Part shown: in pieces, positions 46,198 to 58,861 of the stretch
Layout of the letters: every line of letters starts with the position of its first letter
Numbering within the stretch: position 1 is the first letter of the stretch
Assembly: GCA_036339735.1 (NCBI GenBank)
Contig: JAYZAL010000100.1
Location: 1 to 64,000 of the forward strand
Source: Candidatus Poribacteria bacterium
GTDB lineage: Bacteria; Poribacteria; WGA-4E; UBA9662
DNA length: 64,000 bases
Reading direction: 5' to 3'
Made by a program: the position numbers and the translations under genes
Notes under the pieces: generated by a model
Seen by the model: the letters and a program-made list of their open reading frames with translations, nothing else
The model's database searches: none
What the model was told of the DNA's origin: nothing

Positions 46198-46836
46198 ATG
46201 CTAGGTAAAATTAATGAGAAAATTTTAATTGGTCTTGAAATATTGGCTTCTCAGGACTCAAAGATGGCAAAACTAATCCAATTTTATGGGAATCCACAAA
46301 TTGATCCTAAGCCAGAAAGTCATTTTAGCTCATTAGTCAGATCCATAGTTTATCAACAATTAAGTGGGAAGTCAGCTTCCGCAATATACAAAAGATTAAG
46401 ACAGTTATATTTTGAAAAACCCGATTTCGAACCTGAGGAGATTTTTCAAACAGATGATTCAGTTCTGAAGAGTGTCGGTTTATCAGCCCGAAAGGTTGCT
46501 TACATTAAAGAATTAGCTTGGCATTTTCTATCCGGTAAAATTAACATAGGTAATAATTCAAATGAGACCGAAATTAGAAATACATTGATCGCTATTAAGG
46601 GGATTGGTCCATGGACAATCGATATGTTTTTAATTTTCAAAATGTCTAGATTGGACATTTTTCCTGACTCTGACCTCGGCGTCAAAAAGGGATTACAAAT
46701 TTTATTACAGTTGAAATCTAGTCCGACCAAAGAACAAATAGCCAACATTTCAAACCAATGGCGCCCCTACCGCACACTGGCAACTTGGTACTTGTGGAAA
46801 ATAGCCGACTATGGATTACCCAAAGATTTGCATTAA
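46198..46836 (+). CDS. DNA-3-methyladenine glycosylase (AlkA/HhH-GPD family)
   Basis: SIVYQQLS, GLSARKVAYI, HhH IKGIGPWT, FPDSDLGV, WRPYR. Confidence 0.9.
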   Translation: MLGKINEKILIGLEILASQDSKMAKLIQFYGNPQIDPKPESHFSSLVRSIVYQQLSGKSASAIYKRLRQLYFEKPDFEPEEIFQTDDSVLKSVGLSARKVAYIKELAWHFLSGKINIGNNSNETEIRNTLIAIKGIGPWTIDMFLIFKMSRLDIFPDSDLGVKKGLQILLQLKSSPTKEQIANISNQWRPYRTLATWYLWKIADYGLPKDLH

Positions 46837-47046
46837 TTGACAAATCAGATAGCCATAATTTCTCAATTCTCAAAAGTATTTGATCAAAATTAAAGAAGGT
46901 CGATCTCAAGCCAGTTTAGAATTGGCACAACCCTCCAAGTGATCTGCCACCAAGTCGAGGAACCAGTTTGTGCTAGAATAAATTGCAGAGCTATACATAA
47001 ATCATTGAAGAAGGATATACAAGTAAACAGAAATAGACTCAATAAA

Positions 47047-48126
47047 CTAAACTAGCTTGTCTACTACATCTGTATTCAATCGTTGTAAGAGCAAGAGTAA
47101 TAGGGCCTTAGTGGAATTGTAATCATCAATGTTCATAATTGAGATGTGGCTGTGGATGTATCTTGTAGGTACACCGAGTACAATTGTAGGAATACCATAA
47201 CGACTTTTGTGTATAGCTGCGGCGTTCGTTCCACCCGAATTCCGAACTGCAATTTGGTGGGGAATAGCGTGCTGAACAGCGATTTCAATAACCAAATCGG
47301 CTAGAATGGGATTCGCAATGTGAGTGGGATCGAATAGCCGAATTTGGCATCCACCTCCTAATCTTCCTTGTGACGCGTCTTGCTCAAAACCAGGCAGGTC
47401 ATCTGCAGGTGGAGCCTCCAATACAATCGCCACGTCAGGTCGAATCATTTCGGTCATTGTAATTGCCCCCCTCACTCCGACTTCTTCCTGTACGGACCCA
47501 ACACCAATTATAGTATTAGGATGAGCAGAGGCTTTTGCTAGTTCTTTCAAAGTTTCGATTACTAAGGCGACAGCAATTCGGTTATCGAATGCTTTGGCGG
47601 AATACAGTTTGGGGTTCTTTAGGCTCTGAAAACTGGTAGCTGGTACTACCGGGCAACCAGGACGAATTCCATATTCTTCCTCGGCCTGTCTTTGATTTTC
47701 GGCACCGACATCAATATAAAGATCATTGATATCTAATACCTTGTTTTTAGCACTATCACCCAATAGATGAGGTGGGGTAGAGCCGATAATGCCAATAACT
47801 TTTTGTTGATTTATCTTCGATAAAATTCGTACCTTTTGGGCGAGTAGTGTGTGTGTCCACCAGCCACCCAAATTGATAAATTTCACAAAACCACTCGATG
47901 TTACCCTTTGAACCATGAATCCAACTTCATCGACATGAGAATCAATTAACACACGTGGGCCAGCCGAACGACCTGGCACCATACAGGATATACCACCCAT
48001 TTTGTCTTGCTTTAGTTCACCTATACCTGTTAAGTGATCACGAAAGATATTTGTGACTTCTCGCTCGTAGCCGGGAACCGCATCGGCATTAGTTAAAGTT
48101 TTCAGTAAATCGACTGATTGAGCCAT
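47047..48126 (-). CDS. M42 family aminopeptidase
   Basis: SHVDEVG, KAFDNR, QEEVGVRGA, GGTNA, RYIHS. Confidence 0.92.
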   Translation of the reverse strand: MAQSVDLLKTLTNADAVPGYEREVTNIFRDHLTGIGELKQDKMGGISCMVPGRSAGPRVLIDSHVDEVGFMVQRVTSSGFVKFINLGGWWTHTLLAQKVRILSKINQQKVIGIIGSTPPHLLGDSAKNKVLDINDLYIDVGAENQRQAEEEYGIRPGCPVVPATSFQSLKNPKLYSAKAFDNRIAVALVIETLKELAKASAHPNTIIGVGSVQEEVGVRGAITMTEMIRPDVAIVLEAPPADDLPGFEQDASQGRLGGGCQIRLFDPTHIANPILADLVIEIAVQHAIPHQIAVRNSGGTNAAAIHKSRYGIPTIVLGVPTRYIHSHISIMNIDDYNSTKALLLLLLQRLNTDVVDKLV

Positions 48127-48149
48127 TTTTCAACTACCCTGTCATTAGA

Positions 48150-48959
48150 TTAATGTTGACTTTGATTGTCTACAGCTTGAGAAACTTTGTATTGCAAAAA
48201 ACGCGGACAAACAGCGTTGAGCAGAGGAATCCATTTTAACTTGCTCGGTAGATACATTTTTTGTTTTCCTGTTTTGATCGCAGTCAAAATTGACTGAGCA
48301 CATTCATCGACTTCAATTGATTCCTTATTGTGTGATCGTTTTTGCGTTCCCATCGGCAATCCTTCTAAGTTAAAGGCATTTTGCCTCAGGTTGGTACCAC
48401 GAATCCAGCCCAAGTAAATGTGTAAAAAGCGAACCATTCCTTTCATCTCAATTTCTAAGGATGCCAAGAACCCTTGAAGAGCATGTTTTGAGGCAGCGTA
48501 GCCAGTATGTTCAGGAAATCCCATTAAAGCTTGGGCTGTGGACATTTGAGCGATTAAGCCCTGATTCTTTTTGAGATGGGGCAACGCAGACTTCACGCAG
48601 TGAACTGCCCCCATATAATTTATATCAATCAAGGATTGAAAGAATTGTACATCTTTGATACTTTCGAAATCTGACCACATGCTGATTCCAGCATTCAAAA
48701 CTAAAACATCAAGTTTCTCAAACGTGTCAATTGTTTCTTTAACTAAATTTTCGCACTGCTCAGAATCGGTAATATCAGTAGGAATAGCCAAAGCTGTACC
48801 ACCACTGCTATTGATATCGGAGGCCAATTCCAACAGCTTGGATTCCGTTCTCGCGGCTAATACAACTGATGCTCCATTGAGGCTTGCTCTTTTCGCTAAA
48901 GTAGCTCCAATACCTGAAGATGCACCCGTGATAACAATTGTTTTCTTATTTAGTTGCAT
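48150..48959 (-). CDS. SDR oxidoreductase, DHRS7B/PexRAP-like; candidate acyl/alkyl-DHAP reductase
   Basis: ITGASSGIG, AARTE, LNAG, YAASKHAL. The substrate is inferred from operon context. Confidence 0.8.
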   Translation of the reverse strand: MQLNKKTIVITGASSGIGATLAKRASLNGASVVLAARTESKLLELASDINSSGGTALAIPTDITDSEQCENLVKETIDTFEKLDVLVLNAGISMWSDFESIKDVQFFQSLIDINYMGAVHCVKSALPHLKKNQGLIAQMSTAQALMGFPEHTGYAASKHALQGFLASLEIEMKGMVRFLHIYLGWIRGTNLRQNAFNLEGLPMGTQKRSHNKESIEVDECAQSILTAIKTGKQKMYLPSKLKWIPLLNAVCPRFLQYKVSQAVDNQSQH

Positions 48960-48980
48960 GTGATATTTGCTTGATTCTAT

Positions 48981-50735
48981 TCAATCTGCTAATACATTAT
49001 TGCGAATACCAAATACGTTATTAGGGTCGTGGGAAACTTTCAATTGTCTTATTAGTTCAATACTTGCAGGAGACATAGTGTCAGGTAAAAAATCTTTTCT
49101 GAGTTTACCAACACCGTGGTGATGAGAAATTGAGCCACCGTTCTTCATGATTTCTTCGCGCATAGCATGCTCTATAGAACCAAAAACTACTTCCGGGTCC
49201 TTGATTCCTTTCATATACATCCCAAACATGAAGTAAATACAAACACCAGTATGATAGATCTGCGGAATCCGATATGAGAGATACGGTTGTCCAGGAATAT
49301 TGTGTTCTTCGTGTAGCTCGAATAATTTATCTTTGGTTTTTTGGCAGACTTGGCGAATTTTACTCCAAGGCACTGATGTCTCCATAGTTTCCCCAATGAT
49401 ATGGTAGTTGGAGAGAAAGTCTCTAATATAAGCAATCGCGAAAGTGAGCATATACCCTCTTTTACCATTTTCTGGCCCAGCTGGTAATCCCTGATGCTGC
49501 TTAGATAATTCGAGAATGTTCTGTTTTTGGTAAGCAACTTCCTTGGATGCACCTTCCATAACAAAAGTAACTGCACACATCTGGTAAGGATCAAATCCTT
49601 TTACCTGAGTGACAAAAAGCTTTTGCAGGCGTAACATCAATTTTTTAAATCCTTCTGGATGTGGTTTCAGGGCTTGGCCGAAACGGAACTGGATATTATC
49701 CACCAATCGAACACTGGCCGGAATGTAGTTGGTACGAGAAAGTGCCTGAAGGAAATCGACTCCTTTCTGCCAACTAGGAAAGACTGCAGAGGCGTACTCT
49801 TGTACTTCAGGTAGTTTGTGTATCTTGATTACAGCTCTAGTGATAAGTCCTAAATTGCCTTCACTTCCAAATAATAAGTTTTGTGGACGCATCCCCATCG
49901 AAACACGCGTGGTCGCTTGGTTTTGTTCCAATATACCTCTGGGCGTAATTACGGTAATATTTTCAACAATATCTTCAATGTTACCGTATCGGTTTTTTTT
50001 CATCCCACTAGCTTGAGTGGCAATCCAACCACCCAGGGTGGAAAATTCTATGCTATCTGGTTCATGTCCAACCATGTATCCTTGATTACGTAGTTCTTCC
50101 TCTAGCTTGGATCCAGTTATGCCAGCTTGTACGCACGCACGACCATCTTCGGTATTCACCCACTCAATTTTGTCCATACGACGTGTGTCAATAGCTACGA
50201 TCATCCTATTTTCAGATTTTGGTAGTTTGAGGGCACTACTGACACTAGTTCCGCCTCCAAAAGGAACTAGACAAATATCGTGATCTTCAGCAAGCCGAAT
50301 GAGTTCTACTACTTCTTCGTCTGACTCGGCATAAAAGACCATGTCGATTGCTTTATCGATCTGACCATATAGGATTTTATAAACTTCTTCTGAAGTAGTT
50401 TGTCCATGACTATGGAGCAAACGATCGACAGAATCCACTGAATAACGATCAGGAGGGAACGTTGATTCTACGGCGGACAAGAAATCTGGATTAATTTGAG
50501 GCAGCGGGACGGGCTTATGCTCAACTTCAGGTAAAACATCGTCAGGATCGACCTTGATTTGCAGAGATTCCTCGACATAAGGAATAAAGTCAGGCATTAC
50601 CATCCCACACAGATCATATCGGTCTCCTGACAATGTAATAGTTCTATCCTTATGCAAAATAAATTCGGAATCACGAAAGCCCCACTTGTGTCCCCAAGTT
50701 TCACCATTAGTGGCGACAAATTTTTGATCGGCCAT
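48981..50735 (-). CDS. Alkyl-dihydroxyacetone-phosphate synthase (FAD-linked, AGPS family)
   Basis: RLLHSHGQT, VPFGGGTSVS, GHEPDSIEFSTLGGW, ASGMKKNRYGNIEDIV, GSEGNLG, GYMLTFAIAYIRD, ETSVPW, GGSISHHHGVGKLRK: the motif set of AGPS. Confidence 0.9.
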   Translation of the reverse strand: MADQKFVATNGETWGHKWGFRDSEFILHKDRTITLSGDRYDLCGMVMPDFIPYVEESLQIKVDPDDVLPEVEHKPVPLPQINPDFLSAVESTFPPDRYSVDSVDRLLHSHGQTTSEEVYKILYGQIDKAIDMVFYAESDEEVVELIRLAEDHDICLVPFGGGTSVSSALKLPKSENRMIVAIDTRRMDKIEWVNTEDGRACVQAGITGSKLEEELRNQGYMVGHEPDSIEFSTLGGWIATQASGMKKNRYGNIEDIVENITVITPRGILEQNQATTRVSMGMRPQNLLFGSEGNLGLITRAVIKIHKLPEVQEYASAVFPSWQKGVDFLQALSRTNYIPASVRLVDNIQFRFGQALKPHPEGFKKLMLRLQKLFVTQVKGFDPYQMCAVTFVMEGASKEVAYQKQNILELSKQHQGLPAGPENGKRGYMLTFAIAYIRDFLSNYHIIGETMETSVPWSKIRQVCQKTKDKLFELHEEHNIPGQPYLSYRIPQIYHTGVCIYFMFGMYMKGIKDPEVVFGSIEHAMREEIMKNGGSISHHHGVGKLRKDFLPDTMSPASIELIRQLKVSHDPNNVFGIRNNVLAD

Positions 50736-50751
50736 AATAATACTTTACCTC

Positions 50752-53700
50752 TTATTGGTTATTACTTAAGTCCATTTTGGCTTGGGACTGCAAGTTTATA
50801 ATTGCATCTCTAACATGGTTCGCAATTTGCCTGTATTTTTGGTGAGTATTGCCCGCTTTTAAAATATAGTCTGCTGTTGGTCTGATTGGTGAGCCAAAAC
50901 TAACACTGATATTATTAGGCTGCGGGAAATTTTGCCCCTTTGGTAAGGCTTGATAACTGCCCTTAATGTAGGCTGGAATAATCGGTACTTTTGCTTCATA
51001 AGATAAGAGACCCAAACCTGACCGGAACTCTTGCACTTCACCTGTGATGGATCGTGTGCCTTCTGGATAAATTAGCAATGCGTAACCATTACTTAACGCT
51101 TCTTGAGCAATTCGTACGCCTTGCAGAAAATTGTCTGTTCGATCCAAAGGTAACACGTTCATTAGTTGACCAAAGAACCATGATTTGAATGAGGTGTTAA
51201 AAAAGTAGTCTCGGGCACCAAGAACCTTCAGACGTTCAGACTCATTGCCCAAAGCTGTTATAATAGCGCCTGTATCCAAGTGGCTAGAGTGATTAGGTGC
51301 GATTATGTATGGCTCATTTTGAGGGATATAATTGAGACCTTCTGCCCGGAAGGAAAAGACTTGCTTATAGATAATACCCATCCCCAAACGAAAAATTTTG
51401 GCCTGAGTGTTATTCTGGAGATCGGCTTGATGAGAATTCACCTTAGTTAGTGATGGTAAAGGCTCTTTTGAAGATTGTAATGTATTTATAACAGCAACAA
51501 CATCACCTACAGTTTTTATATTTGTGACCAGATTATCAGGTAATATTCGACCCAGTTCGCCTTCTAGTATCAGCAAAAGTTCTACTTGCATTAAAGAATC
51601 TAGGCCAAGATCTCCTTCTAAGTCGGTGCCTTCATTAATCTGATGGCTTGGGACACGGGCAATTCGGGATAACTCGGCAACAATTCGACTGAGTGGTGTA
51701 TCGGTGGGTTTTATCCCCGTTTGATTGTCCTTTGTTTTCTGGCTATAATAATCCTCTATTAATTCTTTTATAATTTGGCGATCGACTTGACCTGATTGGT
51801 TTTTTGGCAAATTCCGTGCACGGTCAGTTACCCCGGTCCCTACAGGATTAATCGGCCAGAAGTGAGTTTTATGCACACGTTGATAGCTTGGTAATTCGCT
51901 CGCACAAGACCGCACATGTTCAAGAATTGTAGGTTCATCAGCGTCTTCGGAAGGAACTATAACAGCATAAACCTCCTCCCCAATTTCATCATTGGCTAAA
52001 CGGCCAACAATGCAAATCTCTTTTATGTAGTCATGCTTTCCGTAAAGTATTTCTAGTTCGCTGGGATAAATGTTTTTACCCGCTCCTGACACAATGACAT
52101 CTTTTGTTCGACCTGTTAGAAATAAATAACCGTCATCATTAAGATAGCCTAGATCTCCGCTGTAGAGTTTGCTAGATTTTAGTACCTTTTCGGTCGCGGT
52201 TGGATTATTGAAATAACCTAACATTAAGCTTGGAGATTCGATGATGATTTCTCCGATACCATTTGAATCAGGCTGATCGATTTTAAGTTGCACACCATCT
52301 AGCAAAACTCCAACGGAAGAACGTAAGCTTTTTTGGTAAGGATTTACGCTAACAACAGGTGCAGTTTCTGTCAAACCATAACCTTGATATAGAACAACAC
52401 CTAGCTCTAGATAGTTGTCGTAGACACTGTCTGGGAGTGTCGACCCTCCACTAACCAAGACTCTGAGGCTCTGTCCTACAGATAGGTGAATTTGTTTAAT
52501 TTGTTCTTGTGTTAACCGTGGATTCCCTTCATCTGCACGAATTTTTAAGACATATCTTTGTAAACTATCATAAATCATCTTAAATAAACGCGGAACACCA
52601 ATCATAACTGTTGTCTTGGTCTCTTTCATCGTTTCTAAAATGATATTGGGGCGTAAAGAATTTAGATATGTTATTGTTGAACCGCTATAAATTGACATTA
52701 AAAAGCCACAGGTAAACTCCAAGGCATGATAAAGTGGCAAAACTGACAGAAAACGATCTTCGGATTGAGGAGGCAACTGTTGTGCTACCGCTAAAACATT
52801 GGTAATAAAGCTCCGATGTGATAGTATCACGCCTTTCGGATCATAGGCAGTACCAGAAGTGAATATGATCGAAGTAATGTCATCAGGTTTAATTTCAACC
52901 ACTGGCAACTCAATAGAGGACCCTATCACATCTTCCATTCTTTCACATTCAGCTTGGATATCGCGAATCTCAATTATCTGATTGATCCCACTAGTTAACT
53001 CATCTTTGGCCTGTTCAAGTCGTTCGATCAAATCTGAAGTTGTGAAGATAGCTCTTGCTGAAGTGAAACGCAATAGTGCGTAAACTTCATTGACCGGCGT
53101 TTGGCGATCAATGGGTACAATTACCATCCCTAATTTAGCGCAAGCTAAATATATAATCCCCCATTCAGGCTGATTATCAGCGAATAGTAAAATTCGATCG
53201 GATGGGCGGTATCCATTTTGCCATAGGCTCCCTGTGATTCTATTCGATAACTCCTCGAATTGACGATAAGTGTAGGTGACCCATTGTTCATTGCGCTTGA
53301 TTTGTAGCGCGACTTTATCAGGTACTTTTTCAGCTTGATAACTGAGCAGTTCCGGAATGGTTTCGAATTGTTGATGTTCACTTACTCTGTTTTTGATTTT
53401 TGATTTTTCACTGACACTATCTTTATCTTGGATATCTTTCGATTCGGAATCATTGTCATTTGCTCCAGTTGATTCCATATTCAATACGAAACGTTTAATT
53501 CCTGGAATATGGACTCGCTGTAGGTAATCATCCCAATTGAAACTAGAAGCATCAAAGTTGAAGAGGCCTTGTTCTTCAACGGATAATGATCGATGCAAAG
53601 CTAATGTCCTGCTAGCTTCGAATTGATAGTCAAGCCGTACATATGCCCCGTAGATTTTGACGTAATAGAGTAAGCGTTCCAGAGATTTTTGGATTATTGA

Positions 53701-54975
53701 AAGCTGTCTGCTTTTGCGCTTTGACCAGCTAAAAGGTAATTTCTGCAACCACTTTTTGCTATTATCAATTTGTGTATACTTGCCCTCAAAATATCGATTA
53801 AAAGAAGTTAAGTCCCTAAATTTCCATTCTTTTGGTACAATGGATTTGCCATTTCGATCTACCATTGGGTTATTATGAAAATAGGTTTTAGTAGCTCTGT
53901 AGAAGGATTGAAACTGGATAGGATTAATCGTTCCACTTGCAACTTGGTACACAGCTATCTCTGATACATCGAAAGCTTTTGCCGAGGCCGCTAAGATTGC
54001 GTTTACGACTAGGTCGACCGGAATCACATCTATCACAATGTCTGGCTTCGCTGGAAAATCAGGCAATCTGCCCTTACCAAAACCTATGATAAGTGGGTCA
54101 GCCATTCGTAAGCCATCGAGCCAGCCAGGAACAGGCTCTTGCCAACTACTTTCAATTATGGAGGGACGCACAATTGCGACGGAGAGATTTTCACATGTTT
54201 TCGCAACTATTTGTTCACCTAAGTATTTAGTGTAGGTATAAATATCGTTCCACCCGCGAGCCTTGGCATGTTCCAGCCCCGCTTCAATTAGTTCATTCTT
54301 CAAATCATTAGCAGGCAATTTCGAATCACGGCGAATGTTGGCTCCAATAGCCAACATGTGTTCAAGTTCTTCTTGAATGGTTAGTGGAATATCAACCCCG
54401 TTTGACTGTAGTCGGTTGGCAATTTCTTCGTAGGTTGGATGAAGTTCTTCTGCTACTTCGCCAGGCTTGCTACCACAAGAGTAGGCTGTCGAAATATGGA
54501 CAAACACGGCGTTGGGGCAGACACTTGCCAACTCAACCGATCGTTGAGCAGAAATGACGTTCATTAGGACAGCGTCATCAATTGGTGAGTCGAACTCAAC
54601 AATCGCAGCACTATTAATGAAAATTTGCACTTCAGCTGCGAGCTGCTGATAGTCAGAATCAGACAAACCTAGTTTTTCTCTGCTTAGATCCCCCTCGACA
54701 GCAAAGACTTTTTCTCGTATCCATGCATGAAAATTAGATCCATGAATACTTTTCAGTTGATCAAATACGTGTGACTCGAAGAACTTTGAGAGCCTTTCTT
54801 CGGCCGAGACCGTCACACCATTTACATTAGTTCGACTACGAATTAATAAGTAGACTTTTTTAACTTGGGGTATGGTCGTTAAAATTTTCGCGACTAGTGG
54901 TTGACCGACAAATCCGGTTGCTCCTGTGATTAGAACGATTTTATCCTGAAATGTCTGACTGATGCTCGTTTTCAT
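50752..54975 (-). CDS. ElbD-like multidomain lipid enzyme: fatty acyl-CoA reductase + AMP-binding domain + ACP + PlsC-type acyltransferase
   Basis: FAR: LITGATGFVG, HISTAY, YTYTK, IVRPSII, PGW, DVIPVD plus C-terminal Sterile region. AMP-binding: IIFTSGT..DPKGV, YGLTE, SGDLG, GKNIYP. ACP: DLGLDSL (Ser codon 51595-51597). Acyltransferase: APNHSSHLD, IYPEGTRS. Confidence 0.9.
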   Translation of the reverse strand: MKTSISQTFQDKIVLITGATGFVGQPLVAKILTTIPQVKKVYLLIRSRTNVNGVTVSAEERLSKFFESHVFDQLKSIHGSNFHAWIREKVFAVEGDLSREKLGLSDSDYQQLAAEVQIFINSAAIVEFDSPIDDAVLMNVISAQRSVELASVCPNAVFVHISTAYSCGSKPGEVAEELHPTYEEIANRLQSNGVDIPLTIQEELEHMLAIGANIRRDSKLPANDLKNELIEAGLEHAKARGWNDIYTYTKYLGEQIVAKTCENLSVAIVRPSIIESSWQEPVPGWLDGLRMADPLIIGFGKGRLPDFPAKPDIVIDVIPVDLVVNAILAASAKAFDVSEIAVYQVASGTINPIQFQSFYRATKTYFHNNPMVDRNGKSIVPKEWKFRDLTSFNRYFEGKYTQIDNSKKWLQKLPFSWSKRKSRQLSIIQKSLERLLYYVKIYGAYVRLDYQFEASRTLALHRSLSVEEQGLFNFDASSFNWDDYLQRVHIPGIKRFVLNMESTGANDNDSESKDIQDKDSVSEKSKIKNRVSEHQQFETIPELLSYQAEKVPDKVALQIKRNEQWVTYTYRQFEELSNRITGSLWQNGYRPSDRILLFADNQPEWGIIYLACAKLGMVIVPIDRQTPVNEVYALLRFTSARAIFTTSDLIERLEQAKDELTSGINQIIEIRDIQAECERMEDVIGSSIELPVVEIKPDDITSIIFTSGTAYDPKGVILSHRSFITNVLAVAQQLPPQSEDRFLSVLPLYHALEFTCGFLMSIYSGSTITYLNSLRPNIILETMKETKTTVMIGVPRLFKMIYDSLQRYVLKIRADEGNPRLTQEQIKQIHLSVGQSLRVLVSGGSTLPDSVYDNYLELGVVLYQGYGLTETAPVVSVNPYQKSLRSSVGVLLDGVQLKIDQPDSNGIGEIIIESPSLMLGYFNNPTATEKVLKSSKLYSGDLGYLNDDGYLFLTGRTKDVIVSGAGKNIYPSELEILYGKHDYIKEICIVGRLANDEIGEEVYAVIVPSEDADEPTILEHVRSCASELPSYQRVHKTHFWPINPVGTGVTDRARNLPKNQSGQVDRQIIKELIEDYYSQKTKDNQTGIKPTDTPLSRIVAELSRIARVPSHQINEGTDLEGDLGLDSLMQVELLLILEGELGRILPDNLVTNIKTVGDVVAVINTLQSSKEPLPSLTKVNSHQADLQNNTQAKIFRLGMGIIYKQVFSFRAEGLNYIPQNEPYIIAPNHSSHLDTGAIITALGNESERLKVLGARDYFFNTSFKSWFFGQLMNVLPLDRTDNFLQGVRIAQEALSNGYALLIYPEGTRSITGEVQEFRSGLGLLSYEAKVPIIPAYIKGSYQALPKGQNFPQPNNISVSFGSPIRPTADYILKAGNTHQKYRQIANHVRDAIINLQSQAKMDLSNNQ

Positions 54976-55090
54976 GAGAGAAGAAAATCACCTTCTGCTT
55001 TTTGTGTCGTATCAAGTCGACTTAAACTAATACTAAAATGGGCTATGGTATTCTTTGAATGGGCTTGCGCTTGCGGATACGTCCGAAGGG

Positions 55091-55132
55091 TTGCAGACTG
55101 CAAGTATAAGAAAATACTGATCGAGATGTCAA
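55091..55132 (-). promoter_or_regulatory. Putative sigma70 promoter of the lipid operon with an adjacent dyad
   Basis: On the minus strand: TTGACA (55132-55127), 18 nt, TATACT (55108-55103), followed immediately by the palindrome TTGCAG-n-CTGCAA (55091-55103). Confidence 0.6.
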
Positions 55133-55191
55133 TGACAAAACATTTTATCATATTTTATCTAGTTTCATGCGAAAAGAATAAACACTAAGAC

Positions 55192-56508
55192 TTATGGAAA
55201 AATATCTGTTAAAGCTAAAAAAAGCGAATTTATCAATTGATCTATCTCGTCAGTTGTTATAGATAGAGGAGGCATCAGTACAATAGTATTAACCAATGGT
55301 CGTAAAATCAGTCCATGTTTTAAGGCTGCTTGGCATACCCTTATACCTGCCTTTTCTTCAAATTCGAACTCTATCTTGTTTTTTTTGTCTTTTAGAAGTT
55401 CAAAAGCGCCAATTAGCCCAATCGAACGGAGATTACCTACATTTTTATGAGCTGCAAAAATGTTAAGGCGCTCTTTAAAATAGGTAATTTTTTCATCTAA
55501 TATCAGAAAGAAATTTGGATCTTTAAGTAGTCTCAAATTTGCTAATGCAACAGATGCTCCTAGCTGGTTGCCGGTGTAAGTATGACCATGGAAAAAAGTT
55601 TTGAGTTGCGTATAATCCCCCAAAAAAGCCTCGTAAATTCTTTCTGTTGTTAGGGTTGCAGCTAAAGGCAGATAACCACCTGTCAAACCTTTTGCAGTAC
55701 ACAAGATGTCAGGAGATACCTCCTCATGCTGACAGGCCCACATACGGCCGGTTCGTCCTAATCCCGTCATCACCTCGTCAACAATAAACAGGATGTCATA
55801 CTTTAATGCTAACTGCTCTATCCCTTTTAAAAAACCTCTAGGATGCATAATCATGCCACCTGCACCTTGGACCAAAGGCTCAACAATGATACCTGCTAAC
55901 AACCCTCGATGTTCATCGAATATTTGCTCCATTGAATCTAAGCAGACCTCAAGATTACCTTCTTGGCTATGATAGGGAACGGGCGCAGAAATCGAAGGAA
56001 AAGTCAAAGGCAAAAAAGTTTGGTGAAAGAGTGAAATCCCCCCGACACTTACGGCACCTAGTGTGTCTCCATGATAAGCTTGATCTAAGTGTACAAATTG
56101 AGTACGTTTTGGTTGACCCACATGTTGCCAATACTGACAGGCGATTTTCAATGCAACTTCTACAGAAGTAGAGCCATTATCTGAAAAAAAAGTGCGGGTT
56201 AAGTTTGGTGGAGCTAACGCAACTAACTCCTTAGCTAACTTAATCGCTGGTACATTAGAAAATCCTAGGAGCGTCGAGTGGGCTATTTTTTCAATTTGTT
56301 CTATTAGAACCTGATTCAATTTTGGGTGATTATGTCCGTGGATATTCGTCCACATAGACGAAATCCCATCAATATAACGATTACCCTCGACGTCAAATAA
56401 AAATATTCCTTCTCCTCTTTCGATTATGCAAACTGACTCTTTTTCCAAGTCAGCCATCTGGGTGAAAGGGTGCCATAAAAATAACTTGTCCCACTGTTCG
56501 AGTGTCAT
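55192..56508 (-). CDS. bioA: Adenosylmethionine-8-amino-7-oxononanoate aminotransferase
   Basis: LWHPFTQM, SSMWTNIHGH, DNGSTSVEVALK, AYHGDT, DEVMTGLGRTG, AKGLTGGYLPL, FFHGHTYTGN. Confidence 0.95.
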   Translation of the reverse strand: MTLEQWDKLFLWHPFTQMADLEKESVCIIERGEGIFLFDVEGNRYIDGISSMWTNIHGHNHPKLNQVLIEQIEKIAHSTLLGFSNVPAIKLAKELVALAPPNLTRTFFSDNGSTSVEVALKIACQYWQHVGQPKRTQFVHLDQAYHGDTLGAVSVGGISLFHQTFLPLTFPSISAPVPYHSQEGNLEVCLDSMEQIFDEHRGLLAGIIVEPLVQGAGGMIMHPRGFLKGIEQLALKYDILFIVDEVMTGLGRTGRMWACQHEEVSPDILCTAKGLTGGYLPLAATLTTERIYEAFLGDYTQLKTFFHGHTYTGNQLGASVALANLRLLKDPNFFLILDEKITYFKERLNIFAAHKNVGNLRSIGLIGAFELLKDKKNKIEFEFEEKAGIRVCQAALKHGLILRPLVNTIVLMPPLSITTDEIDQLINSLFLALTDIFP

Positions 56509-56626
56509 TGGTTCCTTATCCTTAAATTGACTGGTAAACTTTCGCTGTGTTTTTCATGTTTACAGTAGGTAGAATATAATCTATCTAAACACGTAATTAT
56601 ATCATTTCTATGTGGACTCAAGGTAC

Positions 56627-58861
56627 ATGCGAAAAATGAAATGCACTCGTTTAGTCCTGTTACTTGTTTCTTTTATCCTTCTGTGTTCGACAGATTTGGT
56701 TCTTGGTCAAAGAATTTCAAAAAAAATCCTCACTGAAGGTGAAGGTAATTTCACTGCACCTATTACTGTCGGAAAAGGCATGCCTTTTTCTATCACTTTT
56801 AACGAAATTGAAATCATTACAGAAGTGAATATTTCTAGTACGGACTTTAGTAGTACGGTCAAATCGAGTAGCGGGACAATCGACGGGGAACCCCTCACCA
56901 TTACTTTAGCTCCGGGAACCTACACAATTAAAGAAACATACTACGGCTCTGTGGGAGCAGCAAAAACGTTGATTCCTATTCCAACTCTTGAGATACCTGA
57001 GATTGTTATCGAGCGGAAACTTTCAGTGGGAGCCTTAAGCGAATATACCATTGAGCTCGCGACTACTATTTACAATTTGAGAGTGAAATTGGATGGTGAT
57101 TTTGAAGGTAGCATGCGTATTCGAGAAACAGTTGGAAACCAAGTAGTAGTTCCATTCAAAAGTGTTAAGAAATTGAATAAAGGAACGGAAATTACCTATC
57201 AGGCCGAGTTCTCCGCCTTTGCCGCATCAGAAACCAAGATTAGTAGCCGAGAAATTGTGACACCGGAAGTCTCTCTTAGCTTAAATTCAGATAATCAGAT
57301 AAAAATCAATTGGTATCAAATACCAGGTGCGGAAAGCTACCAAGTCTACCGTTCTCTTACACCAACACCTGATTTGGGTAGTATCGATCCAATAGCGAGA
57401 GGAGTTACAGAAACCACGTTTGTTGATGCAAGCGCCGACCTGAATACAGTTTATTACTACAGTGTTTCGGCTATTGGCTTGAATGGTGGTATTCCACAAA
57501 TAGCAGCAGATGTACCCAATGCTACGTTGTGGATTAATGAGAATGGTAGTACATGTGAATACATCGACGGTACAAAAATTGTTTTTCCAGCGAACTTAGC
57601 TGGTACTTCCGAGAATCTTTATTTGGCTTCAGTATCCACGATATCCAACGACTCGGTCATAAAGCTTGAATCTGCTATCGATGAAAAATCTTATGTCGTG
57701 TCGATTTTTGGGCAAAACCCAGTTTTTAACTTTGATTCGTCAGCTCGTTTAACACTGAAATACTCTGATGGAATAGATAATGAGGTTACAACCCCCCAAA
57801 TTTTTGCCTTGCGAGGTAATAAATGGATACGATTAGTCAACCAAACAACTGACTTAGATAATAACACTGTAACTGCTGACATCAAATCACCAGGTATATA
57901 TAGTTTAGCCTCATTTGAGATTAACAAAACTACAGAAAACCCTTGGGACATCAATAGAGACAGCAACGTTAACATATTTGACTTAGTACTAGTTGCAGGT
58001 CAGTTTGGTGAGAATGGAAAAAACTTGAAAGGTGATATTAACGGAGACAATAGTGTTAACATATTCGATTTAGTCTTGGTTGCGAGTCATTTTGGCGAAA
58101 CTTACGATTCTGCTGCTCCTACTGTTTTTACTTCCAATTTAGCACCTAGTTTTGAGGTTAGTTTGAGGAGTATTTCAGCTGACAAACGTGATACAACGAC
58201 TTTTCAGATTCTAATTGATGGACTTGACTCTTTAGAACAATTAGCCGGATATCAAGTAACTATCTGCGGATTGGAAAACGATTTAAGGGTTATTGATGCA
58301 GGGTCAGTCTTTTTACCCAGATCGACGTATTCAGTTCCGAACCAACGCAGAGGAGACCAAGTAACAATTAGTGCAGTTGCTTATGGTAAAAAAAATAATA
58401 AATCTAAAATTTATACGAAAGAGCAAGCTGTTTTGACTACATTTCAGTTGAGTAGCGAAGAGAAGGGTATTAGGCTACAGAATGTTCTTCTTTCCAATGT
58501 AGATGGTAATTCCATTCCATTGGTTATCAATACAGATATTCAGACAACATTGAATGAACATTTGCCAATCAAAACGGAGGTCAAACAGAATTACCCTAAT
58601 CCGTTCAATCCTGAAACCTGGATTCCTTTTTCTGTCGATTCAGATACTGTTGTTCGATTAATCGTTTACAACTACGGTGGAGCAGTAATAAGAGAAATCG
58701 ATTTAGGTGTGGTCAGTCAAGGCCGTTATATAAATAAAGACGAAGCAATACATTGGGATGGCCGAAATCAGTATGGTGAAGAGGTTGCTAGTGGGGTTTA
58801 TTTCTACCGTTTGCATACCACAAATACTACTTCAGCTAAAAAAATGACCATAATGAAATAA
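56627..58861 (+). CDS. Secreted protein with FN3, dockerin-like and cohesin-like modules and a T9SS type A-like CTD
   Basis: Signal peptide (start at 56627 or 56636; ORF track GTG 56612); FN3 (INWYQIPGAESYQVYRS...YYYSVSA); duplicated DINxDxxVNIFDLVLVA..FGE; C-terminus QNYPNPFNPETWIPF...WDGRNQYGEEVASGVYFY. Confidence 0.85.
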   Translation: MRKMKCTRLVLLLVSFILLCSTDLVLGQRISKKILTEGEGNFTAPITVGKGMPFSITFNEIEIITEVNISSTDFSSTVKSSSGTIDGEPLTITLAPGTYTIKETYYGSVGAAKTLIPIPTLEIPEIVIERKLSVGALSEYTIELATTIYNLRVKLDGDFEGSMRIRETVGNQVVVPFKSVKKLNKGTEITYQAEFSAFAASETKISSREIVTPEVSLSLNSDNQIKINWYQIPGAESYQVYRSLTPTPDLGSIDPIARGVTETTFVDASADLNTVYYYSVSAIGLNGGIPQIAADVPNATLWINENGSTCEYIDGTKIVFPANLAGTSENLYLASVSTISNDSVIKLESAIDEKSYVVSIFGQNPVFNFDSSARLTLKYSDGIDNEVTTPQIFALRGNKWIRLVNQTTDLDNNTVTADIKSPGIYSLASFEINKTTENPWDINRDSNVNIFDLVLVAGQFGENGKNLKGDINGDNSVNIFDLVLVASHFGETYDSAAPTVFTSNLAPSFEVSLRSISADKRDTTTFQILIDGLDSLEQLAGYQVTICGLENDLRVIDAGSVFLPRSTYSVPNQRRGDQVTISAVAYGKKNNKSKIYTKEQAVLTTFQLSSEEKGIRLQNVLLSNVDGNSIPLVINTDIQTTLNEHLPIKTEVKQNYPNPFNPETWIPFSVDSDTVVRLIVYNYGGAVIREIDLGVVSQGRYINKDEAIHWDGRNQYGEEVASGVYFYRLHTTNTTSAKKMTIMK
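57944..58099 (+). repeat. Tandem duplicated EF-hand-like (dockerin type I-like) repeat
   Basis: DINRDSNVNIFDLVLVAGQFGE and DINGDNSVNIFDLVLVASHFGE; also visible in the DNA as a repeated GTTAACATATT(T/C)GA(C/T)TTAGT. Confidence 0.85.

Follow-up and report, generated by a model that had tools for sequence, protein, structure and literature searches.

Previous studies have described two sets of genes for alkyl ether lipids in Myxococcus xanthus. ElbD of M. xanthus carries a fatty acyl-CoA reductase (FAR), an acyl-CoA/AMP ligase, an acyl carrier protein (ACP) and a PlsC-type acyltransferase, in this order, on one polypeptide (PMC9131029; PMC11948995). The AGPS (alkyl-dihydroxyacetone-phosphate synthase) gene of the same organism belongs to an operon that also encodes an epimerase-type protein and a fusion of FAR with an acyltransferase (PMC9131029; PMC13012113), and FAR-GNPAT fusions ("FARAT") are on record for M. 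xanthus (MXAN_1675) as well as for protists (PMC13012113). Surveys have treated the ElbD and AGPS routes as alternatives (PMC11868695; bioRxiv 10.64898/2026.06.23.733905), and how M. xanthus proceeds from a fatty acid to an alkyl ether lipid is described as unknown (PMC9131029). In the present study, a 64,000-nt stretch of DNA from a Candidatus Poribacteria bacterium (contig JAYZAL010000100.1, hereafter the window) was analyzed, in which an ElbD-type gene, an AGPS gene and a gene for a short-chain dehydrogenase/reductase (SDR) lie side by side. These three genes would form one operon for the de novo synthesis of 1-O-alkyl-sn-glycerol-3-phosphate (1-O-alkyl-G3P) by the dihydroxyacetone phosphate (DHAP) route, a reading to which we give a probability of about 0.65.

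We infer all steps of this pathway from domain content, gene context and the precedent of FARAT. The ElbD-type protein (P0001) would use its ligase domain to adenylate a free fatty acid and load its own ACP, and the acyl-S-ACP would either be reduced to a fatty alcohol by the FAR domain or be converted to 1-acyl-DHAP by the HX4D acyltransferase domain. AGPS (P0002) would then put the alcohol in place of the acyl group, a step yielding 1-O-alkyl-DHAP together with a free fatty acid that the ligase domain could possibly re-activate, and the SDR (P0003) would reduce the keto group of 1-O-alkyl-DHAP with NAD(P)H. The predicted product, 1-O-alkyl-G3P, would be the precursor of plasmanyl (alkyl-acyl) glycerolipids, with a separate PlsC-like acyltransferase of the genome acylating sn-2, and of monoalkyl glycerol ethers. 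The original prediction had assigned four activities (fatty alcohol and acyl-DHAP formation, acyl-to-alkyl exchange and reduction) to this one operon. The domains, the identity of AGPS and the SDR-AGPS partnership agree with it; DHAP as the acceptor of the PlsC-like acyltransferase domain is a presumption, and is the weakest step of the pathway.

The genome from which the window comes is 92% complete and fits these assignments in its gene content. A single FAR/Sterile match was found in it, an ACPS-type phosphopantetheinyl transferase is encoded, and there are two PF01553 acyltransferases only, namely the P0001 domain and a stand-alone PlsC-like protein of 244 residues (28% identical). PEDS1/CarF (PF10520) had no match in this genome, and none in any control genome either, which leaves the result little weight; on this ground alkyl, and not vinyl, ether lipids (plasmalogens) might be expected, with the same little weight.

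The locus was compared with the Myxococcus proteins by their published description. P0001 agrees with ElbD of the myxobacterial elbABCDE cluster in its four domains and in their order (PMC9131029), but, in contrast to elbABCDE and to the elbD-elbB pairs of Poribacteria, it has no HAD or epimerase-type neighbor and is followed by AGPS and the SDR. As in the MXAN_1676-type operon, AGPS, a FAR module, an HX4D acyltransferase module and a nucleotide-dependent reductase-type protein are found together in one bacterial operon. In the window, however, the supplier has four domains, with the ligase and the ACP between FAR and acyltransferase, the order is supplier-AGPS-reductase, and the third gene encodes a classical SDR of 269 residues, not an extended epimerase-type protein. 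The original prediction was correct in that ElbD and AGPS of M. xanthus lie at separate loci, but it omitted the Myxococcus operon of AGPS, FAR/acyltransferase and a reductase-type protein; because that operon exists, a compact set of bacterial genes that parallels the animal pathway is already known in kind.

Compared with the peroxisomal pathway (FAR1, GNPAT or FARAT, AGPS, DHRS7B/DHRS7), the same four steps are predicted, AGPS is a clear orthologue and the FAR of the window carries the eukaryote-type Sterile C-terminal domain, whereas the acyl donor would probably be an in-cis acyl-ACP, not acyl-CoA, and there is no organelle. DHRS7B and DHRS7 are SDRs, like P0003 (PMC7517302; PMC13200781). 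The closest AGPS (62-71% identity) and SDR (48-56%) sequences belong to a Marinimicrobia-type cassette, which falls into one clade with the window in both trees; its supplier consists of an HMGR-family protein (FAR in locus L063) and a separate acyltransferase, whereas the window uses the ElbD-type fusion. Another relevant enzyme is Aas of E. coli, an acyl-ACP synthetase fused to a PlsC-type acyltransferase, which loads a fatty acid on ACP and uses it. The NCBIfam model NF006386 (acyl-[ACP]--phospholipid O-acyltransferase) matches P0001 with E 5.3e-60, at a score of 203 against a cut-off of 1221, and P0001 differs from Aas by its own ACP, its FAR domain and its domain order.

New here, provisionally, are the ElbD-type four-domain supplier, the classical SDR and the conserved, co-inherited AGPS-SDR pair. 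No description of ElbD adjoining AGPS was found in main-text passages naming elbD and agps (supplements and subscription papers lie outside this set); they report co-occurrence in the same metagenome-assembled genome (MAG) or separate routes (PMC13012113; 10.64898/2026.06.23.733905; PMC9131029; PMC11868695; PMC7827237; PMC11948995). Among the titles and abstract openings searched, none described a Marinimicrobia ether-lipid cassette or a bacterial acyl/alkyl-DHAP reductase.

Products of the three genes

The window had been predicted to encode a FAR-AMP-ACP-acyltransferase fusion, an AGPS-family flavoprotein and an SDR in three co-oriented genes with gaps of 16 and 21 nt. The arrangement was borne out by the coordinates of three open reading frames (ORFs), which stand side by side on the minus strand in the ORF list of the window (Table 1), with gaps of 16 nt (50736-50751) between the ElbD-like gene and AGPS and 21 nt (48960-48980) between AGPS and the SDR. 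The three products were likewise confirmed: the fusion by the order of its Pfam domains and its intact motifs, AGPS by a full-length match to a solved AGPS, and the SDR by its adh_short domain and motifs.

P0001 matches the ElbD domain order of FAR, acyl-CoA/AMP ligase, ACP and PlsC-type acyltransferase on one polypeptide. Intact motifs were found in each domain: GATGFVG and YTYTK in FAR, TSGTAYDPKG in the ligase, GLDSL in the ACP, and HSSHLD and EGTR in the acyltransferase. The ATG of the gene is preceded by a GAAGGTGA ribosome-binding site. The FAR part matched PDB entry 7eoz, a "fatty acyl-CoA reductase", with E 2.7e-79. By sequence, the acyltransferase domain is PlsC/AGPAT-like, with HSSHLD as its HX4D motif and EGTR also present. 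Its sole PDB match was PlsC 5kym (E 1.6e-14), the PDB search offering no solved GNPAT for comparison, and a look-up in the protein atlas returned generic acyltransferase clusters only, with nothing on the substrate. In the acyltransferase-domain tree, it nests among ElbD-fused acyltransferases (a 15-row clade, SH-aLRT 99). The nearest homologues of P0001 outside the family of the window show 46-49% identity at 99% coverage and bear Candidatus Poribacteria names. The clustering with elbB (HAD) or elbE (epimerase-type) expected of the ElbD family was not found beside the gene, where the neighbors are bioA, AGPS, the SDR and an M42-family gene.

P0002 consists of the Pfam domains FAD_binding_4 and FAD-oxidase_C, and a AAGAGGTAA ribosome-binding site is present at its gene. 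Residues 16-579 aligned with chain residues 94-656 of guinea-pig AGPS (4bby) at 514.9 bits (E 2.6e-153), and Dictyostelium AGPS (2uuu) was matched at 312.3 bits (E 5.9e-92). A grouping with D-lactate or glycolate oxidases would have spoken for another function; the best D-lactate dehydrogenase match (8jdc) reached 95.1 bits (E 3.6e-26) and began only at residue 130, and the match to solved AGPS includes an N-terminal part that has no counterpart in D-lactate dehydrogenase. The glcD model TIGR00387 scored 148 bits against a cut-off of 567.9, all other FAD-oxidase models were far under their cut-offs, and P0002 grouped with AGPS instead. R343, Y501 and H538-H540 are invariant in an alignment of 14 sequences (A1), and they align with PASIRL, CIYFYF and SHHHGVGK of the guinea-pig enzyme. 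In the latter, Arg419, Tyr578 and His615-617 are what we take to be the catalytic Arg, Tyr and HHH loop. Judged by sequence, P0002 is an AGPS orthologue (EC 2.5.1.26).

P0003 matched adh_short with E 4.4e-47, the Epimerase model reaching only E 0.0099, under its cut-off, and NCBIfam NF004825 scored 249.6 against a cut-off of 215. The motifs TGASSGIG, NAG and YAASK are intact and correspond to the classical SDR pattern TGxxxGIG/NAG/YxxxK. After the second beta-strand (VVLAARTES) stands Arg37, with no acidic residue at that spot, which fits NADP(H)-preferring classical SDRs. The best PDB matches were generic SDRs (clavulanic acid dehydrogenase, 88.6 bits; 11beta-HSD1, 65 bits); neither these nor the protein atlas, which gave generic SDR clusters only, pointed to a substrate. 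The label "PexRAP-like" for P0003 is one of analogy only.

Gene order, promoter and neighbors

The coordinates of the operon, of the domains of P0001 and of the neighboring features are collected in Table 1.

Table 1. Features of the ElbD-AGPS-SDR locus in the window.
Feature	Coordinates	Strand	Basis or remark
ElbD-type four-domain protein P0001, 1407 aa	50752-54975	minus	Pfam and motifs
P0001 FAR domain	53479-54936	minus	NAD_binding_4, residues 16-327, E 1.6e-67; Sterile, residues 426-499
P0001 acyl-AMP/CoA ligase domain	51856-53340	minus	AMP-binding, residues 546-922, E 8.3e-75
P0001 ACP domain	51487-51687	minus	PP-binding, residues 1097-1163
P0001 PlsC-type acyltransferase domain	50962-51348	minus	Acyltransferase, residues 1210-1338, E 1.4e-20
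AGPS orthologue P0002, 584 aa	48981-50735	minus	PDB match, invariant residues
Classical SDR P0003, 269 aa, candidate acyl/alkyl-DHAP reductase	48150-48959	minus	Pfam, NCBIfam, synteny
M42-family aminopeptidase P0004	47047-48126	minus	Pfam Peptidase_M42, E 5.4e-88
bioA-type aminotransferase gene	55192-56508	minus	upstream neighbor of the operon
Sigma-70-like promoter candidate TTGACA-18-TATACT	55103-55132	minus	11/12 match, 128 nt upstream of the ElbD-like start codon

The operon had also been given a promoter of its own. The ElbD-like gene is separated from bioA upstream by 216 nt (54976-55191), and this gap holds the promoter candidate, the only 11/12 match in 46500-56800. However, the 22 promoter-like sites of the region are in total not above the number in shuffles (26.1, standard deviation 5.0), and a contig from an RNA library (X15 record 8, 54870-55186) runs over the candidate; because of this contig, read-through from bioA, or carried-over DNA, is possible. 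A separate promoter for the operon is plausible.

In a terminator scan of the region, no terminator-like site was found at the ElbD/AGPS or AGPS/SDR junction, nor between the SDR and the M42 gene, which starts 23 nt past the SDR in the same orientation and was absent from the original prediction. The aminopeptidase gene is probably co-transcribed with the operon and is probably outside the lipid pathway; no functional tie of the M42 or bioA neighbors to lipid synthesis was seen. Both neighbors are kept in the relatives L004 and L005. The GC content is 0.39-0.44 over 47-55 kb and does not shift at the AGPS-SDR genes. Conserved flanks were sought as a sign that AGPS-SDR had been inserted cleanly behind elbD, and no insertion scar can be argued, because neither bioA nor M42 stands near elbD in four further genomes of the phylum.

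The DNA recurs in marine samples: 14 DNA runs from eight marine or sea-water metagenome studies hold at least 77% of the sampled words, two of these runs being possibly the source. Parts of all three genes were found, at an identity of at least 95%, in the contigs of four metatranscriptome libraries, each of a different study; such contigs say nothing on transcript ends or expression levels, and their cover is patchy, stretches of the locus being without cover in some runs. When a 31-letter rule was used for the bridging of junctions, contig X18 record 27 (48830-49022) bridged the AGPS/SDR junction and one contig of a variant strain bridged the SDR/M42 junction. The ElbD/AGPS junction was bridged by no RNA-library contig, X15 record 6 entering AGPS by 26 letters only.

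Relatives and the AGPS-SDR pair

The distribution of the genes in the phylum was surveyed in 151 sampled genomes, the window's own included, with E <=1e-30 for an ElbD-like match and E <=1e-50 for AGPS. An ElbD-like gene was present in 147 of the 151, and AGPS in four, all of them in the family of the window (4/4; 0/147 elsewhere). Given this spread, the Poribacteria-named homologues and the nesting of the acyltransferase domain in the ElbD-type clade, the large gene would be the usual elbD of the phylum. In other genomes of the phylum (L092, L093), an elbB-like HAD gene (PF12710) follows elbD, an arrangement in agreement with the elbD-elbB pairs described in sponge-associated Poribacteria (10.64898/2026.06.23.733905). 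The family of the window is without it and has elsewhere only a HAD of 33-36% identity, at the level of a second paralogue; in the window's genome this HAD is 35% identical and lies on another contig.

Had the linkage been missing in relatives, this would have counted against one operon. The order ElbD-like, AGPS, SDR and the short gaps are kept in L004 (AGPS 97% identical to that of the window), L005 (88%) and G147/L087 (79%), and among the surveyed loci direct co-oriented linkage of the three genes was seen only in these and in the window. The closest named record, L004, is a "Candidatus Poribacteria" MAG, whose ElbD-like domains, SDR, M42 and BioA are 87-95% identical to those of the window. 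The gene after the SDR is M42 in L004 and L005 and a sigma-54 activator in G147/L087.

To place the AGPS-SDR genes more widely, genome contigs were scanned with an AGPS alignment, which gave 412 relatives; the best 80 of the 412, from other genomes, were used for the neighborhood counts. An SDR was counted as an orthologue at a P0003 match of at least 150 bits, on the same strand and at most 400 nt from AGPS. Such an SDR directly follows AGPS in 37 of the 75 loci with enough downstream sequence, and a partial SDR was seen in three of the five loci that end too soon. The AGPS-SDR loci are labeled Poribacteria, Neomarinimicrobiota, Acidobacteriota and Thermoguttaceae. Directly upstream of AGPS, an acyltransferase was found in 28 of 72 assessable loci, and 27 loci have AGPS flanked by both an acyltransferase and the SDR.

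Trees were built for AGPS (FastTree, 84 rows) and for the SDR (IQ-TREE quick, 44 rows); both are unrooted, and their groupings, being splits, hold wherever the root is placed. In each tree the window shares a clade with L004, L005 and G147 (support 100 for AGPS and 99 for the SDR). This clade falls within a group of 27 rows with Marinimicrobia-type loci, which holds the same 27 rows with support 100 in both trees, and a 4-row group and an Acidobacteriota group also recur in both. Since the SDR follows AGPS in 37/75 loci and the trees agree, AGPS-SDR appears to be a co-inherited pair. The ElbD-type gene would be resident in the phylum, and the pair would have arrived directly behind it as one unit, akin to the Marinimicrobia cassette; this direction of transfer is suggested by the rarity of AGPS in the phylum.

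A side observation concerns the sister genus, whose AGPS-SDR pairs L085 (G064:C66) and L086 (G053:C117) are 51% (AGPS) and 44-45% (SDR) identical to that of the window and cluster with the Marinimicrobia loci L051 and L063 in the AGPS and SDR trees. Because this pair groups with other Marinimicrobia loci, the sequences suggest a second, independent acquisition of AGPS-SDR, so that the family would have acquired the pair twice.

The genes beside the pair vary between groups. Loci labeled Neomarinimicrobiota or Marinimicrobia hold an HMGR-family gene, a stand-alone acyltransferase, AGPS and the SDR. The HMGR-family gene (PF00368) occupies the FAR position, directly upstream of the acyltransferase, in 23 Marinimicrobia-type loci (e.g., L007:8131-9288); in L063, a FAR with a Sterile domain replaces it, giving four separate genes for FAR, acyltransferase, AGPS and SDR. 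In the acyltransferase-domain tree, the Marinimicrobia-type enzyme sits on a long separate branch, with 25-35% identity to the domain of the window. The 23 loci are L006-L017, L019-L023, L026, L030, L036, L041, L051 and L080. In five genomes of this type, IspH was over its cut-off in 5/5 and HMG-CoA synthase in 0/5, and for this reason the HMGR-family gene may be read as FcrA-type. FcrA is a characterized HMGR-derived fatty acyl-CoA reductase for which a role in ether lipids has been suggested; a tight HMGR-like-acyltransferase-AGPS-SDR operon is not described in the passage of the FcrA paper cited (PMC11948995).

Acidobacteriota loci hold AGPS and the SDR alone. In a cyanobacterial locus (L040:3877-11521; also L042, L044 and L045), an ACS-ACP-reductase of 1104 residues is followed by an acyltransferase, AGPS, a fatty-acid desaturase and an SDR; the SDR is more distant, the stand-alone acyltransferase is 41-43% identical to the ElbD-type domain, and the set would be another supplier variant for AGPS, with a desaturase. 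In a Thermoguttaceae locus (L077:12601-20098), AGPS-SDR faces a convergent DUF3943 gene, an ElbD-like gene for 1453 residues and a diacylglycerol-kinase-family gene. The ElbD-like gene is convergent to AGPS-SDR at a distance of ~3 kb, and the locus is a second, looser ElbD-AGPS association, in another phylum. In two Chloroflexota loci (L054:7846-9426, L031:8380-9960 and L031:11938-13515), AGPS homologues 59% identical to that of the window adjoin amine-oxidase/phytoene-desaturase-type flavoproteins and have neither acyltransferase nor SDR beside them; their role may differ from ether-lipid synthesis.

Competing explanations and meaning of the locus

Several points weigh against one operon for the DHAP route. 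The predicted pathway is well supported by comparative genomics, and all of its support is of this kind; the RNA-library contigs may stem from carried-over DNA. With ElbD-like genes in 147/151 genomes and AGPS in four, ElbD-type enzymes would in general do without AGPS. The sister-genus genomes G053 and G064 carry elbD and the AGPS-SDR pair on different contigs, and on an acidobacterial chromosome the two are ~620 kb apart. M. xanthus makes only slightly less ether lipid when its AGPS gene is lost, whereas loss of elbD abolishes most of it (PMC9131029). Across phyla, 38 of the 75 assessable AGPS loci, mostly from Chloroflexota, have no SDR, and in none of the five SDR-less loci whose flanks were scanned (0/5) does AGPS adjoin an acyltransferase or an SDR; two of the five, from Chloroflexota, carry amine-oxidase-type flavoproteins, and the others have different or unassigned neighbors. 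Furthermore, the acyltransferase domain could act after the SDR, not before AGPS, because its only solved relative, PlsC, is an sn-2 acyltransferase.

The first alternative takes the genes for two independent routes that happen to be neighbors, ElbD working by the AGPS-independent Elb mechanism and AGPS-SDR having been acquired separately and drawing its substrates from elsewhere. The spread of ElbD-like genes beyond AGPS (147 against four genomes) and the unlinked genes of the sister genus and the acidobacterium fit this explanation, as does the separation of the routes by M. xanthus genetics (PMC9131029; PMC11868695). We consider it unlikely nonetheless, because the spacing is tight (16 and 21 nt, neither junction having a terminator-like site), because three relatives, with AGPS identities as low as 79%, show the same order, and because of the coupling to suppliers in other phyla, where AGPS-SDR is usually joined by an acyltransferase, with or without a FAR or FcrA-like gene, at the equivalent position. 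Moreover, beyond this locus the genome of the window shows neither a FAR nor a candidate DHAP acyltransferase.

Under a second alternative, the pathway would be the same, but the acyltransferase domain would have another task (sn-2 of 1-alkyl-G3P, with acyl-DHAP made by another enzyme), or the end products would be neutral or signaling ether lipids, that is, alkyl-diacylglycerols as in Myxococcus and not membrane phospholipids. PlsC 5kym as the only solved relative points this way, the ElbD acyltransferase has been called AGPAT-like (PMC9131029), and M. xanthus elbD is required for the alkyl-diacylglycerol TG-1 (PMC7827237). This explanation is improbable in our view: a stand-alone PlsC-like gene exists, the 92% complete genome has no third PF01553 protein for acyl-DHAP, and the acyltransferase of FARAT fusions is read as resembling GNPAT, the DHAP acyltransferase, for which a fusion to FAR has been shown by experiment in Tetrahymena (PMC13012113). 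That the AGPS homologue and the SDR serve some purpose other than the ether bond, e.g., the oxidation or degradation of a substituted glycerol phosphate, is very improbable: two Chloroflexota AGPS-like loci do adjoin amine-oxidase-type flavoproteins and lack acyltransferase and SDR, but P0002 matches solved AGPS over its full length, the N-terminal part included, it keeps the Arg, Tyr and HHH positions, and its neighbors are lipid enzymes and not kinases or GlpABC.

The DHAP-route operon can also be set in a wider frame, which we put forward tentatively and hold to be doubtful as a whole: AGPS-SDR would be a mobile "ether-bond cassette" docked onto local suppliers (FcrA and an acyltransferase, FAR and an acyltransferase, an ACS-ACP-reductase and an acyltransferase, or ElbD) across abundant marine phyla, and its position right behind elbD in this lineage would reveal the general role of ElbD. 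If this were true, ElbD would draw on one pool of ACP-bound acyl groups for both fatty alcohol and 1-acyl-DHAP, ElbD-only organisms would use a non-homologous exchange enzyme, P0003 would be the first bacterial acyl/alkyl-DHAP reductase, and pelagic Poribacteria-like bacteria, together with Marinimicrobia, would contribute significantly to the non-isoprenoid alkyl glycerol ethers of seawater.

Taken as an operon for the DHAP route, the locus would be a natural construct in which an ElbD-type enzyme stands together with AGPS and a dedicated reductase, so that two routes held to be separate are joined. It bears on whether ElbD supplies both substrates of AGPS, on the acceptor of its acyltransferase and on the SDR as a bacterial counterpart of DHRS7B. 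Because the DNA recurs in marine metagenomes, the pathway may also bear on the origin of the alkyl glycerol ethers of the ocean, a geochemical link that we infer. For the study of this family of enzymes, the locus offers a candidate bacterial acyl/alkyl-DHAP reductase and a direct experimental handle on the function of ElbD.

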